From Parcubacteria group bacterium GW2011_GWA2_47_26 (GTDB lineage Bacteria; Patescibacteriota; Patescibacteriia; GWA2-47-26), in NCBI GenBank assembly GCA_001001705.1, contig LCOG01000003.1, positions 1-46,291 of the forward strand: a DNA stretch of 46,291 nt. Reading direction: 5' to 3'. The notes under the pieces are model-generated. The model did no database searches and was not told the DNA's origin. It worked only from the letters and a program-made list of their open reading frames with translations. Positions 9,156 to 37,226 of the stretch are shown in pieces. Position numbers and translations under genes: made by a program. Each line of letters begins with the position of its first letter. Within the stretch, counting starts at the first letter, position 1.

Positions 9156-9201
9156 AACTCGTCTTGCATTTAGCGCGATCGCGCTAAATGCAAGACGAGT
9201 T
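9156..9201. repeat. Perfect 46-bp palindrome downstream of PaaX-like gene 1
   Basis: AACTCGTCTTGCATTTAGCGCGA|TCGCGCTAAATGCAAGACGAGTT. Confidence 0.9.
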
Positions 9202-9227
9202 GGAAAGCATATTTCGACGCCATCCAT

Positions 9228-9815
9228 TTACATCCTATTCACTTCTGCAAACTTACGCAAAAGTCGCGGGCTGCATTTTTTACAATCCGCTTCAATCAGC
9301 TCATAGTATTTTTCAATCCCCAAATACTGAAATAAGTTTGAAAGATGTGGTTCCGGATTATATGGCGAAACCCACACCGAAAGCTGCCACATACGAAAGC
9401 CGTTGACGCGCATGAGCTTTCGTAAAAAATCGCGATACTTTTTTTGAATCTCCGGCACATCAAACAGAATCAGCCGCCACTTCCGATCCCATGCTCGTTT
9501 TCTTTGTGCTTGCATATGCAATGCAAATTGCAGCCGCAATATTTCGTACTTGGCTTTCGTAGTCAGACGAACCAATCGCTCCTCTCCCTCCTTCTTCGTT
9601 TCAATATAATGCCTGCTCTTAAGATAATCAATGTGTTTACGAAGCTGTGCTTGTTCTTTCTTTGCTCGCCGGCGCCCTTTCTCGATAAAATAAGTGGGCT
9701 CATACTTTAAACTCGGATATAGTGGCCGATAAGACGCCAGTGCATCATCAATATCCCTGTAGGCCGCGAGAAGCTCAAGAAGCGTAATCTGTACTTTGGT
9801 CAATTTCGAGCCCAT
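9228..9815 (-). CDS. PaaX-like protein (winged helix plus Cas2-like ferredoxin fold), copy 1
   Basis: LKSRHYIE..VRLTTKAK wing; WDRKWRLILFDVPE..RDFLR..GF..WQLSVWVSPY. Confidence 0.85.
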   Translation of the reverse strand: MGSKLTKVQITLLELLAAYRDIDDALASYRPLYPSLKYEPTYFIEKGRRRAKKEQAQLRKHIDYLKSRHYIETKKEGEERLVRLTTKAKYEILRLQFALHMQAQRKRAWDRKWRLILFDVPEIQKKYRDFLRKLMRVNGFRMWQLSVWVSPYNPEPHLSNLFQYLGIEKYYELIEADCKKCSPRLLRKFAEVNRM

Positions 9816-9862
9816 AGCTATTTACGCAAAAATTATTACCATCCTAACTTTTAAACGTTTCC

Positions 9863-9908
9863 AACTCGTCCCGCGATTGGCGCGATCGAGTCAAGTGCAG
9901 GACGAGTT
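9863..9908. repeat. Degenerate 46-bp sister palindrome upstream of PaaX-like gene 1
   Basis: AACTCGTC...CGCGATCG...GACGAGTT; same length, ends and centre as 9156-9201. Confidence 0.85.
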
Positions 9909-9966
9909 AGTTATTTACCGTTTTTCTTCTTCTCTTCTCACCCAACCGCGCGAGTAGATCACCCAT

Positions 9967-14567: not shown

Positions 14568-15721
14568 ATGCATAAACTCGTTATTGTGTTCCACGTCTCC
14601 CTCGCCGCCTTGTCCCAGCTAAATTCGCGAGCGCGTTCCTTGCCTTTACTAATCATTTCTTGTCGTAATTTTGTATTATGCAATACTTCCGCCATGCCTC
14701 GCGCAATATCCTCGCTGTTTTGAGAATCAACATAATAGGCTGCCTCGCCGCCAACCTCGTGTAGCGCCGGAATAGCTGAACATACGACCGGCACGCCCGC
14801 GGCCATGGCTTCCAAAACCGGCAAACCAAAACCTTCTCCAAATGACGGCAACATCAGCAGCGCCGCATTTTTAAGCAACTCAAAATATTGCTCCCGCGAA
14901 GTCCAGCCTAAGTGTAGCACATGATCTTGAAGTTTTAAAGTATTGATGGCGTGTAATATTTCATCTCCACCATAGCCAAGTTGGCCGGCAAGAATAAGCT
15001 TCAAATCGGATGTAACTCCTCCATTCGCCTGCAGCGAATCTCCCCCTCTTAAGGTAAGAGGGGGTTGGGGGGCGTTATCAATCAATCTCCTAAATGCCCG
15101 AATCAACCCAAGCACATTTTTCTTTTTCTCCAGGCGGCTGATGAATAAAATGAACCCAGAAAAAGGGGACAGACCCCTTTTTGAATCAAAAAGGGGTCTG
15201 TCCCCTTTTTCCACTCCATGCGGGATCACTGCAATTCTTTCTTCTTTAACTCCCACGTGTACTAAATCATCTCGCGTTGCTTTTGAGGGCACAATTATCT
15301 GCCTTGCGCCTTTTAACGCCATGTTCAAACTTCGTCGCTGTCGTTTTAGATCTGCGGCATCATAAAGATCCGGCTGCAACAAAAAAATCACATCGTGAAT
15401 AGTTACCACCGTATTTTTAGGATGAACAAATGGAATTGTATAAGCAGGGACGAAAAGAACGTCCGGCTTGTTAAACATCATCTCTAAAGACAACCGTCCC
15501 TGCGTCCAACCCCGTCCAATCCATTTAAGTACTTTCCACTCCCAATTCCCATTCTTCATTCTCCATTCTTCATTCTCCATTTGCGGCGTATACAATCTAA
15601 CTTTCCACCCCTCCGGCGTACATTTTTCCATGGCTCGTAATAAAAAATAAGAGTACCACTCTACTCCTGTTTTCTCTTTCTTTATCGCGCGTGAAGCATC
15701 AATTCCCAAAACCTTTGGCAT
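14492..15721 (-). CDS. Glycosyltransferase family 4 (GT-B) with several repeat-derived insertions
   Basis: VVTIHD, SRLEKKKN, PSFGEGFGLPVLEAMAAGVPV, FSWDKAARET. Confidence 0.92.
   Translation of the reverse strand: MPKVLGIDASRAIKKEKTGVEWYSYFLLRAMEKCTPEGWKVRLYTPQMENEEWRMKNGNWEWKVLKWIGRGWTQGRLSLEMMFNKPDVLFVPAYTIPFVHPKNTVVTIHDVIFLLQPDLYDAADLKRQRRSLNMALKGARQIIVPSKATRDDLVHVGVKEERIAVIPHGVEKGDRPLFDSKRGLSPFSGFILFISRLEKKKNVLGLIRAFRRLIDNAPQPPLTLRGGDSLQANGGVTSDLKLILAGQLGYGGDEILHAINTLKLQDHVLHLGWTSREQYFELLKNAALLMLPSFGEGFGLPVLEAMAAGVPVVCSAIPALHEVGGEAAYYVDSQNSEDIARGMAEVLHNTKLRQEMISKGKERAREFSWDKAARETWNTITSLCIPLEAAVAIVAGHDIYAKDQFIKYK
15012..15077. repeat. CCCCTCTTAAGGTAAGAGGGG-type palindrome in-frame in the glycosyltransferase
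   Basis: Encodes NAPQPPLTLRGGDSLQANGGVT. Confidence 0.7.
15159..15211. repeat. Family C palindrome in-frame in the glycosyltransferase
   Basis: GAAAAAGGGGACAGACCCCTTTTTGA-A-TCAAAAAGGGGTCTGTCCCCTTTTTC. Confidence 0.85.
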
Positions 15722-32822: not shown

Positions 32823-32904
32823 TGTCATCCTGAGCGTCAGCGAAGGATCCCGCACTTTTACGCACGAGATTCTTCGCCCCGCCAAGGCGGGGCTCAGAAT
32901 GACA
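32823..32904. repeat. Family A doublet upstream of glyA
   Basis: TGTCATCCTGAGCGTCAGCGAAGGATCC...GAGATTCTTCG...GCTCAGAATGACA. Confidence 0.85.
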
Positions 32905-32933: not shown

Positions 32934-34226
32934 ATGTCCCATCTCTCTCAATTCGACCCCGAAATCGCGAACGCCATTGAAAGCGAACTTATTCGCCAGC
33001 GCCAGGTTTTGGAAATGATCCCGTCAGAAAATTTTACCTCGGAAGCGGTACTTGAAGCAATGGGTAGCGTGCTTACCAATAAGTACTCTGAAGGTTATCC
33101 TGGCAAGCGCTACTATGGCGGCAATGAATATATTGATCAGATAGAAAACCTCGCCCGTGACAGAGCTAAAGCTTTGTTTGGCGTAAGCCACGCCAATGTG
33201 CAATCCTACTCCGGCTCGCCGGCTAATCAAGCGGTGTGCTTTGGACTGGTCAGCCCGGGCGATAAAATCATGGGCCTGCACCTTTTTTACGGCGGGCATT
33301 TGACGCACGGCTGGAATGTTAATTTTTCCGGAGTGTATTATACATCGGTGCAGTATGTTACCGGGCGCGATGGATATATTGATTATGACGCGCTTGCTAA
33401 GCAAGTTTCCGAGGAGAAACCCAAATTGATCTTTGTGGGCGCCACGGCGTACCCGCGTAAATTTGATTTTTCCACACTGGCGCAAATCGCAAAAAGTGTT
33501 GATGCCTACCTTGTTGCGGATATTTCGCATATTGCCGGACTTGTAATTTCCGAAGACCATCCTTCACCAGTAGGACACGCTGATGTCATAACTACGACGA
33601 CGCACAAAACTCTGCGCGGACCGCGCGGAGCCATTATTCTTTGCAATGGCGAATCAAGCGAACCATTAAAAGCGCCGCCAGAGCGCTCACGGAAATATTT
33701 GCCCACTATGATTGATCGCGCGGTCTTTCCGGGGCTACAAGGCGGGCCGCACAACCACCAGACTGCCGCGATTGCTGTTGCCTTAAAAGAAGCCGCTACG
33801 CCGGAATTCAAAGAATATGGCCATCAAGTTATGCGCAATGCTAAGGCTTTGGCTCAAGCCTTGCTTGATGAAGGCATTGCCTTGATAACCGGCGGCACAG
33901 ACAACCACCTTATCCTTGCGGATTTAACACCATTAAATATTGGAGGCAAGCAAGCGCAAAATGTCCTTGATGAAGTTGGCATCACGCTTAATAAAAATAT
34001 GATACCTTTTGACACGCGCAAACCTTTTGACCCTTCGGGGATTCGTTTGGGAACTCCGGCTTTGACTACCCGCGGATTTAATGAAGAGGACATGCGTGTT
34101 ATTGGAAAAATAATTGGCGAGGTTTTGAAGGATTCCACTAATGAAACAATAAAAAACAAAGCGCGAGACACCGTACGCGAGCTTACGGAAAAGCATCCGC
34201 TGTATCCGGGACTGACCGTATTGTAG
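32934..34226 (+). CDS. glyA: Serine hydroxymethyltransferase
   Basis: IPSENF, NKYSEGYPGKRYYGG, GGHLTHG, TTTTHKTLRGPRG, SGIRLGTPALTTRG. Confidence 0.98.
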   Translation: MSHLSQFDPEIANAIESELIRQRQVLEMIPSENFTSEAVLEAMGSVLTNKYSEGYPGKRYYGGNEYIDQIENLARDRAKALFGVSHANVQSYSGSPANQAVCFGLVSPGDKIMGLHLFYGGHLTHGWNVNFSGVYYTSVQYVTGRDGYIDYDALAKQVSEEKPKLIFVGATAYPRKFDFSTLAQIAKSVDAYLVADISHIAGLVISEDHPSPVGHADVITTTTHKTLRGPRGAIILCNGESSEPLKAPPERSRKYLPTMIDRAVFPGLQGGPHNHQTAAIAVALKEAATPEFKEYGHQVMRNAKALAQALLDEGIALITGGTDNHLILADLTPLNIGGKQAQNVLDEVGITLNKNMIPFDTRKPFDPSGIRLGTPALTTRGFNEEDMRVIGKIIGEVLKDSTNETIKNKARDTVRELTEKHPLYPGLTVL

Positions 34227-34278
34227 TAAAAAGGGAACGTTTCTCTTTTTACTTCCTTTTTACCCTTTTTACTTCCCT

Positions 34279-35295
34279 ATGCAACTCATTGACGGCCGCG
34301 CAATTGCTGACAAAATCCGCCAAGAAGTAAAAGAAGAAATTACACGGCTCGGGATTACCCCGGGTCTTGGTGTTATTTTGGTTGGCAACGATCCGGCCTC
34401 GTATCTCTATGTGTCGTTGAAACAAAAGGCCTGCCAAGAGGTCGGCATTAAATTTGAAAAATATGTGTTGCCAACGACTGATACGCACAAAGGTGTCATT
34501 CCGAGGCGCGCAGCCGAGGAATCCCGTGCTGACCAGAATAACGAGATTCTTCGCTACGCTCAGAATGACAATGTGTGTGGATGCGAACAGTGTATTATTA
34601 ATCTAATTAGAAATCTCAATGTGCGTCCTGACATTCACGGCATTCTTGTCCAGGTGCCGCTACCGCCGCCATATAACAAAAATAAAATAATCAGCACTCT
34701 GGAACCAGACAAAGACGTTGATGGATTTCACCAAGTTAATCTGCGCGCCACTTTGGAGGGAGAGGCGCGCATCATTCCGGGAGTGGCTTTGGGGGTTGAT
34801 GCGCTTATTGGCGAGACATTGCGAGTAAAAGGAGCCGCCTCTAATTTTACGGAGCAAAATTTAGAAGTGGGTCCTTTTGCTAACTCACTTACAAATAAAA
34901 AAGCGGTATTGCTCATGAACAGTACCACTTTTGCATTGCCAATTGAATATTTACTGGAGGGGCGCGGAGCACTTGTGCATATTATTTTACGCCCTAGCGA
35001 GATTACCCCCGAGATCATCGCACAATTAAAAACTGCGGATATTTTTGTCGTGGCAATAGGGCGGCCGCAGATCATTAAGGGCGACATGCTTAAAGACGGC
35101 GCAATTGTTATTGATGTCGGCACTAATCGTTTACCGGATGGGAAGCTCGTTGGTGATGTAGATTTTGAAACTACCCAAAACAAACCCGGCTTTATTACAC
35201 CCGTGCCCGGAGGAGTGGGCCCGATGACTGTAGCGATGCTACTACGGAATACTATAGAGCTTGCCAAGGCGCAATCGAAGGCGCAAACGCGCTAA
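34279..35295 (+). CDS. folD: Bifunctional methylene-THF dehydrogenase/cyclohydrolase with two in-frame repeat insertions
   Basis: GILVQVPLP, KDVDGFH, IDVG, GDVDF, ITPVPGGVGPMTVAML. Confidence 0.96.
   Translation: MQLIDGRAIADKIRQEVKEEITRLGITPGLGVILVGNDPASYLYVSLKQKACQEVGIKFEKYVLPTTDTHKGVIPRRAAEESRADQNNEILRYAQNDNVCGCEQCIINLIRNLNVRPDIHGILVQVPLPPPYNKNKIISTLEPDKDVDGFHQVNLRATLEGEARIIPGVALGVDALIGETLRVKGAASNFTEQNLEVGPFANSLTNKKAVLLMNSTTFALPIEYLLEGRGALVHIILRPSEITPEIIAQLKTADIFVVAIGRPQIIKGDMLKDGAIVIDVGTNRLPDGKLVGDVDFETTQNKPGFITPVPGGVGPMTVAMLLRNTIELAKAQSKAQTR
34494..34570. repeat. Family A doublet in-frame in folD
   Basis: Encodes VIPRRAAEESRADQNNEILRYAQND. Confidence 0.88.
34827..34878. repeat. Family B palindrome in-frame in folD
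   Basis: Encodes KGAASNFTEQNLEVGPF. Confidence 0.85.
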
Positions 35296-35323
35296 TTCGT
35301 ATTGCCATGGCAATTTGAATTAG
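35292..35323. repeat. Palindrome downstream of PaaX-like gene 2 containing both convergent stop codons
   Basis: CTAATTCGTATTGCCATGGCAATTTGAATTAG. Confidence 0.85.
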
Positions 35324-35883
35324 GGGTGAAGTTTAAAATGATAACATACCGCCTTTTCATGCAGGCCAAGGGAAGTCGCAAGTAAAAGTGAGACATGCTT
35401 CTCGATCTCATAAAACTTACAAACACGGCACAATTCCTCCTCGCACGGATATGGACACACAAAGATACTCTTCTGAATATGGTAAAATCCTAGTGCTTTT
35501 AAATGTTGGCGAAGGAACTCGCGGGAGACTTTTTTAACAGTTGGCACATCGAACGCAACTACCCGCCAGAGGCCATCCCATTTAACTGGCTTTTTGAGAT
35601 TCATTTGCCAAAGCTCTCCTCTCTCCAGTGCTGCCTTACCTTTTGGCGCAAGTTTTGCAATAATTCGCCCTTCATGATCCTCTCTTAGCGCAATCAGTTT
35701 CAAGCGCTGTAATCTTTTGAGTTGCTGACGTATATACCACATCTTATACTTTGCAAACCGTGTAAGTAGTTTTGGCGCCAATGGTCCGGCAAAGCCCGCG
35801 AGCGTGATCACAAGCACAGAATCCCGCAACGTTTCAAGAATTAGCTTTGTTAGTTCTCGTTTGTAAGGTTTTTTCTTGTTCAT
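35320..35883 (-). CDS. PaaX-like protein (winged helix plus Cas2-like fold), copy 2
   Basis: LKRLQRLKLI..KLAPKGK; KWDGLWRVVAFDVP..REFLRQHLKALGFYHIQKSIFVCPYPCEEE. Confidence 0.87.
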   Translation of the reverse strand: MNKKKPYKRELTKLILETLRDSVLVITLAGFAGPLAPKLLTRFAKYKMWYIRQQLKRLQRLKLIALREDHEGRIIAKLAPKGKAALERGELWQMNLKKPVKWDGLWRVVAFDVPTVKKVSREFLRQHLKALGFYHIQKSIFVCPYPCEEELCRVCKFYEIEKHVSLLLATSLGLHEKAVCYHFKLHP

Positions 35884-35947
35884 ATATATTACCAGCGCCA
35901 CGCATCAGCAGGCTATGACAGGACTTTAGCCACAGGTAGTCCACAAT

Positions 35948-35995
35948 CATCATAGCTAATTCGTATTGCCATGGCAATACGAATTAGCTATGATG
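35948..35995. repeat. Perfect 48-bp palindrome upstream of PaaX-like gene 2
   Basis: CATCATAGCTAATTCGTATTGCCA|TGGCAATACGAATTAGCTATGATG. Confidence 0.9.
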
Positions 35996-36062
35996 TGTCA
36001 TCCCTGTCAGTAAAGCATAAGGCTGAACCTTAAATCCGTGGAGCATATTCGGCAATAATCCT

Positions 36063-37226
36063 TTAAAGCAGGCCCGCTAATTTTTGAATGACGCCGACCA
36101 GTAGCAGAGCAATCATCGCGAGGCCAAGAATGGTTTTTAGATTACGGCTGCGAACATGTTTCCGTTTAAAAAACGCCAACGCGACTAAAATAATCATAAT
36201 TGCATCAAACCCACCAAAGACACTGCCTACAATATCAATGACTTGCACAAAATTACGCGCTCCGGCCAGGAAAAGAAAAAATGGAACCCAGACCGCGAAA
36301 ATCCAGGCCGGTATAGCCTTGACTCTAAAATCATAGGCAAAAGTTTCCTTAAGGTACAGCGCGACAACCAAATAAGAAGTGACTACCGCAAAAAAGCCAA
36401 AGAGCGCGCCAAGCCAGATTATATTGCTACCGAGCGTGCTTCTTAACCCTTCAAAAGCTTCTTCAGTAGTTGCCGTGCCAGAAATACCTACGACGACTAG
36501 AGCAAAAAGTAAGGTAATTATTACTGGTACGATAGTCCCGACAATAATGCTGCCACGCATAACAAAAAGGGAACGTTTCTCTTTTTTCCGAAAAAAGAGA
36601 AACGTTCCCTTTTTGTTGACCATATCCCACATCTCCGGGATTGCCGCGGCGCCACTTAAAGCAAAAAGTATAATGCCATAAGGAAAAAATAATCCCGCAC
36701 CTGTGCCAGCGCCAATCAAATTGCTGGCTTCAATATGGGGAACGCCTAAAACAAGAATCACCGCTATAATCGCAAGCAGAAGCCAAGTCATCCAAAATTC
36801 AACCCGATCAAAAATACGCAAGCCTAAAAAGGTTATAGTAGCCACAAAGCCGAATAATAAAATTGTATAAAAGAAGCTACTGCTCCCATTGCCGCCTTGG
36901 AAGAGTATTTTTAAAAACGTTCCTCCAACCAACATGTAGGCTACTTGCGCGCCCCAAAAACTTAGGGTTTGAGAAATGGTAACAATTTTTTTTGCCGAAT
37001 GACCGAGATAGCGATCCGCATAGCCAACTAGACGATGCTTGCCCGGCGTTCCCGCTACTACTTCGCCAAAATACAGATTAATCAGAAGTGAAACTGCGCC
37101 TAAAAGCACAATCCAAAAAAGTCCAATGCCAAATCCGGCCCGCGCTGAAACATAAGGCACGGCAAAAAGCCCAACACCAATAATCATGCCCATTAAAATG
37201 ATTGTACCGTGTAAAAATTGCCGCAT
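36063..37226 (-). CDS. Aromatic amino acid permease family (HAAAP/TyrP-like) transporter
   Basis: GMIIGVGLFAVPY..AG, PYGIILFA, AVVTSYL; about 11 TM helices. Confidence 0.85.
   Translation of the reverse strand: MRQFLHGTIILMGMIIGVGLFAVPYVSARAGFGIGLFWIVLLGAVSLLINLYFGEVVAGTPGKHRLVGYADRYLGHSAKKIVTISQTLSFWGAQVAYMLVGGTFLKILFQGGNGSSSFFYTILLFGFVATITFLGLRIFDRVEFWMTWLLLAIIAVILVLGVPHIEASNLIGAGTGAGLFFPYGIILFALSGAAAIPEMWDMVNKKGTFLFFRKKEKRSLFVMRGSIIVGTIVPVIITLLFALVVVGISGTATTEEAFEGLRSTLGSNIIWLGALFGFFAVVTSYLVVALYLKETFAYDFRVKAIPAWIFAVWVPFFLFLAGARNFVQVIDIVGSVFGGFDAIMIILVALAFFKRKHVRSRNLKTILGLAMIALLLVGVIQKLAGLL
36561..36617. repeat. Family C-like 57-bp palindrome in-frame in the permease
   Basis: AACAAAAAGGGAACGTTTCTCTTTTTTC-C-GAAAAAAGAGAAACGTTCCCTTTTTGTT; half copy at about 34228. 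Confidence 0.85.

Follow-up and report, generated by a model that had tools for sequence, protein, structure and literature searches.

Why does a small gene of an ultra-small bacterium from groundwater lie between two copies of a palindrome of its own, and what might its protein do with them? The question is raised by a locus within a 46,291-nucleotide stretch of DNA from Parcubacteria group bacterium GW2011_GWA2_47_26 (contig LCOG01000003.1, positions 1 to 46,291; hereafter the window), in which a gene for a short PaaX-like protein (mini-PaaX; here P1) is bracketed by an upstream and a downstream copy of one palindrome. The window is contig C3 of an 842-kb, 26-contig, 80%-complete genome, which is called G000 in the genome comparisons. 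Judging from sequence, we give a somewhat better than even chance to P1 being a self-bracketed, autoregulated, site-specific DNA-binding protein. Among the lines of evidence that a self-bracketed binder best fits, all five genes of this type in the genome have private palindrome pairs, certain boxes of the palindromes are conserved, and gene and palindrome occur together.

Private palindrome pairs around mini-PaaX genes

Both palindromes that an earlier note on this DNA had reported, a perfect 48-bp one upstream of P1 and a 32-bp near-copy downstream, were recovered by an arm search. The arms of the upstream copy (35948-35971 and 35972-35995) are 24 nt each and 100% complementary, with no spacer, and as single-stranded DNA this copy has a predicted fold of -23.7 kcal/mol (z = -9.9). 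The two copies are 86% identical over 42 nt and are separated by 664 bp. In the window, the 23-nt core of the palindrome was found at these two sites only (four strand-matches at up to 3 mismatches), with 0.00 expected from 100 shuffles. A paralogous cassette, P2, lies elsewhere in the window. Its palindromes are centred on CGATCG and those of P1 on CCATGG, and the two pairs share no sequence similarity, as the earlier note had stated for the pair at 9156 and 9863. The two proteins are 26% identical.

The genome contains five PaaX_M genes, and a private palindrome pair flanks each of them, with the copies 664-813 bp apart. The architecture is therefore wider than the two paralogues described in the earlier note. 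Among 41 related genomes, mini-PaaX genes were found in 15, with 1-10 copies each. Thirty-three of these loci were fetched, 30 of them with full flanks; a flanking pair was present at a score of at least 15 in 22 of the 30 and at a score of at least 20 in 19, and the maxima for shuffled flanks were 9-16. A scan across Patescibacteria, in which one genome per species was searched with the P1 clade, returned 62 loci in many lineages, and 35 of the 55 with full flanks had a flanking pair (shuffle maximum 14). The family itself is large. Its profile matched 7332 cluster representatives at 50% identity (E <= 0.001), mostly of 170-240 aa and matched end to end, and a word-indexed homologue search gave only 7 close relatives. 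Viral contigs gave no relative in a single-protein search with P1. A tblastn search with a third protein of the genome, P3, gave no phage match, and for plasmids one canonical PaaX only.

The same central hexamer occurred on both flanks in 26 of 60 loci, and in all 26 it had the form C-N4-G (CGATCG 9, CTATAG 7, CCATGG 4, CGGCCG 4, CAGCTG 1, CACGTG 1). Such a constant centre is in keeping with contact between the dyad and a conserved part of the protein. When residues were compared with centre type in 25 loci, the best column had a mutual information of 1.68 bits, a value reached by 11 of 300 label shuffles, and it tracks one clade. The neighbours of the five cassettes have no common function (folD and a permease; a glycosyltransferase and GlyRS; a FabH-like gene; a DNA polymerase A fragment; unknowns). 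P1 itself lies between folD and an amino-acid permease gene, with no paa genes nearby, and the unit would not be a regulator of a neighbouring pathway.

One related locus (G017:C1:966001-969024; L085) holds three copies of one CCGGCCGG-centred palindrome, at positions 713, 1501 and 2470. The order there is palindrome, mini-PaaX (-), palindrome, a 242-aa gene (+), palindrome, so that an unrelated neighbour gene is also bracketed. By eye, we take the 242-aa gene to resemble the endonuclease/exonuclease/phosphatase family.

The mini-PaaX palindromes are not generic high-copy repeats distributed independently of these genes. They are low-copy, with three to six copies in each of the families P1, P3 and P4: 3 copies for P1 (1 solo), 6 for P3 (4 solo) and 5 for P4 (3 solo). 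The P5 family has 2 copies, neither of them solo. The genome-wide search for solo copies that the earlier note had proposed also found these palindrome types confined to genomes with the matching gene, save for one P3 copy. At up to 1 mismatch, the P1 core was found 3 times in G000 and once in a genome of another genus, G003, whose second flanking copy differs at 2 positions; G001, G002 and G005, three genomes without a P1 orthologue, had no match. The P4 core occurs 5 times in G000 and in none of 40 other relatives, and the P3 core 6 times in G000 and in one of the 40 (G008, a single symmetric copy with 2 mismatches). The family of a cassette in G004 comprises two flanking copies and one solo copy inside a gene, and has relatives in G000 (a symmetric orphan variant) and in G017 (the three-copy set). 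The family in G029 consists of two flanking copies only.

A metagenome scan with a degenerate pattern of the P1 palindrome gave 7 loci. Two were cassettes of the G003 type, one was a homologue (34% identical) that has a CCATGG pair of its own, and four were short matches without a relative of the gene; the scan found neither a close relative nor an empty site. Rfam gave sub-threshold matches to plant microRNA hairpins only (28 bits versus 83-84). As a separate observation, palindromes resembling those of P2 (ACTCGTCCCG...CGATCG...) occur in a longer dispersed repeat at G000:C2:54920-54973, C19:4102-4153, C8:34688-34739 and C9:33354-33402, and these copies have 40 nt or more of flanking sequence in common on either side.

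In G003, the gene order is folD, palindrome, P1 orthologue, palindrome, cutA-like gene, permease. Between the two genomes the P1 proteins are 74% identical, with synonymous sites saturated (pS 0.82, pN 0.18), and the FolD proteins are 65.6% identical. P2 and its syntenic counterpart in G005 are 90% identical in amino acid sequence (dN/dS 0.05), and their DNA similarity of 79.6% over 761 bp is bounded exactly by the palindromes (window 9157-9909). Across orthologues the palindromes keep discrete boxes. In those of P1, the boxes are ATTGCCATGGCAAT at the centre and TTC/GAA 10-12 positions from it, with variable and frequently unpaired bases at positions 8-9. In those of P2, the centre persists together with the outer ACTCGTC boxes, and the middle of the arms decays. 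Since these boxes have been kept across such a distance, they appear to be the signature of a protein-binding site under selection. By the same comparisons, the P1 cassette is of old standing in the chromosome, inherited vertically and under strong constraint.

Table 1. Features of the P1 locus and of the paralogous cassette, in window coordinates.
Feature	Position	Strand	Details
Upstream palindrome copy	35948-35995		Perfect, 48 bp; CCATGG centre; 65-112 bp before the ATG at 35883
Downstream palindrome copy	35292-35323		32 bp, 2 mismatches; 18-nt overlapping arms, 89%
mini-PaaX gene (P1)	35320-35883	-	187 aa; likely start ATG at 35883
Promoter-like element	35949-35977	-	TTGCCA, 17-nt spacer, TATGAT; points at the P1 gene
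folD, convergent neighbour	34279-35295	+	3' end extends into the downstream palindrome
Paralogous cassette (P2)	9156-9908	-	Palindrome 9156-9201 (perfect, 46 bp); gene 9228-9815; palindrome 9863-9908

The mechanically called P1 open reading frame (ORF) covers 35320-35901 with a GTG start at 35901, and the orthologue favours the ATG at 35883. As the earlier note had claimed, the downstream palindrome contains two stop codons, the TAA of folD (35293-35295) and the stop of P1 (35320-35322). The coordinates bear this out, and the folD half of the arrangement is a local accident and not a design feature. The folD stop lies inside the palindrome because a 12-bp tandem duplication at 35266-35289 (AAGGCGCAATCG / AAGGCGCAAACG) lengthens the gene by about 7 residues; at the syntenic locus of G003, folD ends 19 bp before the palindrome.

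Other repeats lie near the locus. FolD carries an insert of about 35 aa (VIPRRAAEESRADQNNEILRYAQNDN) within 34490-34580, which its orthologues are without (288-305 aa versus 338 here), and the repeat recurs at 32869-32900, at the start of the glyA ORF. Contigs from four metagenome runs pile up at 34503-34669 with a summed depth of 87-2234, so that the insert is a very abundant repeat, one that other organisms share. A 57-bp palindrome at 36561-36617 (arms 28 nt, loop 1; AACAAAAAGGGAACGTTTCTC...) lies in frame in the permease ORF (36063-37226). Its shorter relatives are at 34223-34255, between glyA and folD, and at 15159-15211, and all are unrelated to the mini-PaaX palindromes.

Fold and family of the P1 protein

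P1 matched PaaX_M (PF20803) at 1.8e-20 (73.2 bits, cut-off 24) and the Cas2 family of Pfam (PF09827) at 3.3e-05 (24.4 bits, cut-off 23.8). Against the NCBIfam cas2 model (TIGR01573) it scored 22.4 with a cut-off of 24.5, which three of its paralogues passed (27.2-35.4). Cas2 models were the sole matches in PADLOC. In the AlphaFold model (mean pLDDT 94.5), residues 1-100 form a winged helix of the PadR/LmrR/RosR type (Z 10-11), which aligned to 5H20 with Z 11.3 and an rmsd of 3.4 over 93 residues, and to operator-bound PadR (5X11) with Z 9.7. A Cas2-like domain of beta-alpha-beta-beta-alpha-beta topology follows at residues 106-182 (strand 106-111, helix 115-130, strands 134-137 and 140-143, helix 148-157, strand 164-169) with the motif FDVP (D112), R121, R125 and S139.

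The best full-length structural match in the Protein Data Bank (PDB) was E. coli PaaX (8A39; E 2.6e-05), and the second domain was matched by Cas2 structures. A sequence search of the PDB with the single protein gave nothing meaningful, and a family profile search was required instead. The profile matched PaaX at 5.6e-05, the winged helix of AspA (5K1Y) at 2.1e-04 and several Cas2 proteins at 2.5e-03 or weaker. It aligns the FD[IV]P of the family to the FFDLP of Cas2, with the Asp at the end of beta-1, where E. coli PaaX has LLLSE, and the whole family motif F-D-[IV]-P ... R ... R ... G-F ... Q-x-S-V-[WF] aligns to Cas2. The earlier note had suggested structure prediction to check whether the Asp of FDVP is equivalent to that of Cas2, and both the model and the profile alignment place it there. 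D112 is invariant in 32 of 32 relatives. Among 156 aligned family members, a sample biased to the best-scoring representatives, D112 and S139 are present in all and R121 in 154.

Against the PaaX equivalog model (TIGR02277) P1 scored 22.1 bits with a cut-off of 264.55 (paralogues 24-44 bits), and no match to the PaaX_C domain (PF08223) was found in it at E <= 0.01, the protein stopping at residue 187 directly after the Cas2-like domain. Because of this low score and the missing PaaX_C, P1 is by these measures not a PaaX equivalog. Nor does it look like an ordinary Cas2, because a winged helix is joined to the domain and Cas1 (PF01867) had no match in the 80%-complete genome, in which CRISPR arrays were not searched for. 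The family and structure searches with P1 gave PaaX_M, Cas2 and winged-helix matches only, and no HUH (Y1) transposase. A full-text literature search found nothing that joins PaaX with Cas2, with Cas2-like plus palindrome, with Patescibacteria or with winged helix.

Autorepression and rival readings

The P1 protein would be a small site-specific DNA binder, probably a dimer, in which a PadR-like winged helix is fused to a Cas2-like domain, and its cognate site would be the CCATGG-centred palindrome that brackets its own gene. The promoter-like element in the upstream copy matches the consensus at 10 of 12 positions (a consensus match only, with its mirror image on the + strand by symmetry). 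Its -35 hexamer lies within the conserved core and its -10 in the outer arms, which only the upstream copy has. Such a match overlies the upstream copy in three of the five cassettes of the genome. If the upstream copy carries the promoter of the gene in this way, bound protein would shut off its own transcription, because the promoter sits inside the site. The earlier note had offered autoregulation by DNA looping between two operators as its alternative; the autoregulatory part gains some support from TTGCCA-17-TATGAT in the upstream copy. The downstream copy, at the convergent junction with folD, may be a second operator, either partnering the upstream copy in a loop or insulating the cassette as a roadblock. 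We infer this role, as we infer any part of the protein in spreading the site. In this lineage the site has also been copied to a handful of further places, at the ends of genes or in frame within them, and keeps its two-fold symmetry there. By analogy, the P1 site behaves as a slowly spreading, symmetry-keeping repeat in the REP/RAYT pattern, in low copy and with a different protein fold, and the pair of protein and palindrome would resemble a low-copy REP/RAYT system.

Several observations weigh against a plain autorepressor. The palindromes, at 36-48 bp, are far longer than a winged-helix dimer needs, and the distance from palindrome centre to start codon ranges over 0-145 bp. Across paired loci, a promoter-like match overlies the upstream copy in 4 of 22, by a scan that is insensitive (any match within 260 bp upstream in 7 of the 22 only). 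No pair was detectable in 8 of 30 loci of relatives and 20 of 55 loci across the phylum. There are also two orphan palindromes without a matching cassette in their own genome. The one in G000 (C2:36455-36498; L084, about 1491-1534) is 44 bp long and GCGGCCGC-centred, and a 92-aa ArsR-like ORF begins 83 bp downstream of it. This orphan differs symmetrically from the palindrome flanking a mini-PaaX gene in G004, and the 80%-complete assembly of G000 holds no cassette to match it. The one in G003 is a 44-bp palindrome inside a gene, and its nearest cassette is in G005 and not in G003. Further, the Cas2-like domain may do more than dimerise, because the signature residues of Cas2 are kept while the Asp has been lost in E. 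coli PaaX.

The location of solo copies adds to these difficulties. Of eight solo copies (P1, P3 and P4 families; placement judged with mechanical ORFs of at least 100 aa), four lie between convergent genes, two between co-directional genes, two inside ORFs and none between divergent genes. The palindromes are not, then, confined to the cassettes. The P1 solo copy (G000:C5:76918-76951) lies in the gene of a 507-aa protein, where it encodes SKFVLPWQYEFA; this part of the protein is a variable loop, and the orthologues are 7-13 residues shorter there. A gene for a Wzy_C (O-antigen ligase-like) protein, G000:C14:13441-14943 (L074 529-2031), is a hotspot with three palindromes, all from different families and including a P3 solo copy. 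Among the orthologues of this gene that were compared (L153-L157), that of G004 has a palindrome with the same centre as the G000 orphan, cognate to a G004 cassette, in the position that one of the G000 palindromes occupies, and that of G003 has its 44-bp palindrome elsewhere, as a 7-aa insertion relative to five other orthologues. These sites are not operator positions and look like tolerated insertions.

The pattern of changes within the palindromes points the same way. In 14 copies of the P1, P3 and P4 families, compared over their 34 central bases, there were three compensated symmetric double changes, with 0.08 expected when the same number of changes was placed at random (none of 20000 simulations reached three). 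Three copies have exactly two changes, each pair being at partner positions and complementary, and eight changes are one-sided. Related variants with 2 mismatches are symmetric in four of five cases, the exception being G005:C4:156895. The symmetric changes point to base-pairing, that is, selection for a hairpin or cruciform, or to one arm having been templated on the other. Independent reading of half-sites by a homodimer is disfavoured, because it does not predict them.

These data bring up the rival that survives best, and we consider it possible although unlikely: a REP/RAYT-like replicator, in which the protein binds the palindrome and copies or maintains it, with the Cas2-like site over C-N4-G nicking or resolving a hairpin or cruciform. 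New copies would be seeded at gene ends and in frame, and the flanking pair would mark the master element. Each gene with a private family and solo copies, copies nearly identical within a genome yet lineage-specific, in-frame copies in variable loops with the clean G003 insertion, the symmetric changes and variants, the invariant Asp, Arg and Ser of the Cas2-like domain and a patchy, multi-copy distribution are all in its favour, as is vertical inheritance with the cognate gene, which has been reported for REPIN-RAYT systems. It has to contend with the lack of a transposase or recombinase fold, with solo copies that number 1-4 and not hundreds (the P5 and G029 families have none), and with an Asp whose role might be structural, as a helix cap. 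The Cas2-type residues might also serve only dimerisation, contact with DNA at the C-N4-G dyad, or an effector. Neither a target-site duplication nor defined ends of an element were seen, and the low-depth contigs showed no excision or insertion joint. Four groundwater or soil runs hold the stretch at depth 2-8, and no RNA data set was listed among the holders. None of the contigs joins the two sides of the cassette, and joints that would indicate excision or a circle were not seen. In one of the runs, X10, both flanks are covered and 35338-36005 is not, at a depth too low to indicate an empty site. An extension of this replicator is slightly less probable still. The mini-PaaX proteins might be trans-acting partners of a phylum-wide, undescribed class of REP-like mobile palindromes, with the PadR-type winged helix reading the private arms and a Cas2-type active site over the invariant C-N4-G dyad nicking or resolving the extruded hairpin. 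The palindrome would in this way be copied to new sites, in-frame positions in housekeeping genes among them. Such a system would be a functional RAYT analogue without an HUH enzyme, and a free-living Cas2-fold relative that still acts on palindromic repeats.

Base-pairing can also be selected in RNA, where the palindromes might serve as 3'-end stabilisers or bidirectional terminators of transcripts and the Cas2-like domain might bind or cut the hairpins. Stand-alone Cas2 and VapD act as ribonucleases. The downstream P1 copy forms part of the 3' end of each convergent mRNA, half of the eight solo copies are between convergent genes, and the changes preserve pairing, one partner change giving a T-G combination. 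However, no T-run follows the hairpins, the sole terminator-like match being a weak 5-pair stem beside the palindrome, and the upstream copy would be untranscribed given the predicted promoter. The flanking copies tolerate unpaired positions (8-9 in P1, mid-arm in P2) yet keep discrete boxes, and the N-terminal domain is a typical reader of duplex DNA. We give an RNA-level device only a small probability.

Less probable again are chromosome-organising or centromere-like sites, on which the protein would nucleate to mark or pair loci. AspA of pNOB8 and ParB/parS nucleate on cognate sites, and here there are few dispersed sites per protein and a family profile that matches AspA; that match (5K1Y, E 2.1e-04) covers the generic winged helix only, a partner ATPase gene adjoins none of the five cassettes, and 5-10 parallel systems would be odd in a genome of 0.8-1.2 Mb. 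Equally improbable, and strongly disfavoured, is an incidental link between mini-PaaX and one of many hairpin families that accumulate at gene ends independently of any protein: G000 does have 97 palindromes with arms of at least 14 nt, in many families, several without a PaaX_M gene in the assembly, and orphan copies exist, but both flanks of five of five genes hold the same private family, the pattern recurs in 22 of 30 and 35 of 55 loci, and the palindromes are kept with orthologues at saturated synonymous sites. Even taken jointly, the RNA-level, centromere-like and incidental readings remain unlikely.

Comparison with known systems

The family is spread across Patescibacteria and has no described function, and bacteria with about 800 genes carry up to 10 mini-PaaX cassettes. 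If these are self-bracketed autorepressors, they would represent a compact, two-end insulation of a gene. If the proteins also drive the spread of the palindromes, this would explain the in-frame insertions of hairpins that are frequent in the housekeeping genes of these organisms.

PaaX (E. coli W structure 8A39; TIGR02277; PF07848, PF20803 and PF08223) is the best PDB match by both fold and profile, with the same N-terminal winged helix and Cas2-like middle domain. PaaX is a repressor that responds to phenylacetyl-CoA and binds palindromic operators. P1 differs in its length (187 aa versus about 305), in lacking PaaX_C and paa neighbours, in keeping the Cas2 Asp (FDVP versus LLLSE) and in being bracketed by its own sites. 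With Cas2, P1 shares the ferredoxin-like fold and the Asp at the end of beta-1, and differs from it by the fusion to a winged helix and in that the 80%-complete genome gave no match to Cas1. Autoregulated repressors of the PadR/LmrR type share the winged helix with P1, whose palindrome over a promoter-like element may correspond to their operator; P1 has in addition a Cas2-like domain, sites of 36-48 bp and copies away from promoters. As with the auxiliary operators of the lac repressor, paired sites 560-950 bp apart could loop; here the second of the two is found where the regulator gene itself ends.

Rickettsia palindromic elements resemble the palindromes described here as in-frame hairpin repeats in coding genes. 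To our knowledge, no cognate protein gene accompanies the Rickettsia elements, whereas each family here has one.

A likeness in behaviour exists to the REP/REPIN-RAYT systems of Pseudomonas and enterobacteria, in which a single-copy gene is reported to be flanked by its own repeats and these to be inherited vertically with it. The shared features are flanking repeats of the gene's own, one family per paralogue, dispersed extragenic copies, repeats that are missing where the gene is missing, and vertical inheritance over long times. The differences are that mini-PaaX is not an HUH/Y1 transposase, that solo copies number 1-4 and not tens to hundreds, and that the palindromes are single and perfect rather than REP doublets, some of them lying in frame inside genes. 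If mini-PaaX proteins do spread their palindromes, they would constitute a second, independent system of the REP/RAYT type, built on a Cas2 fold, and would bear on the origin of the work of Cas2 with palindromic repeats.

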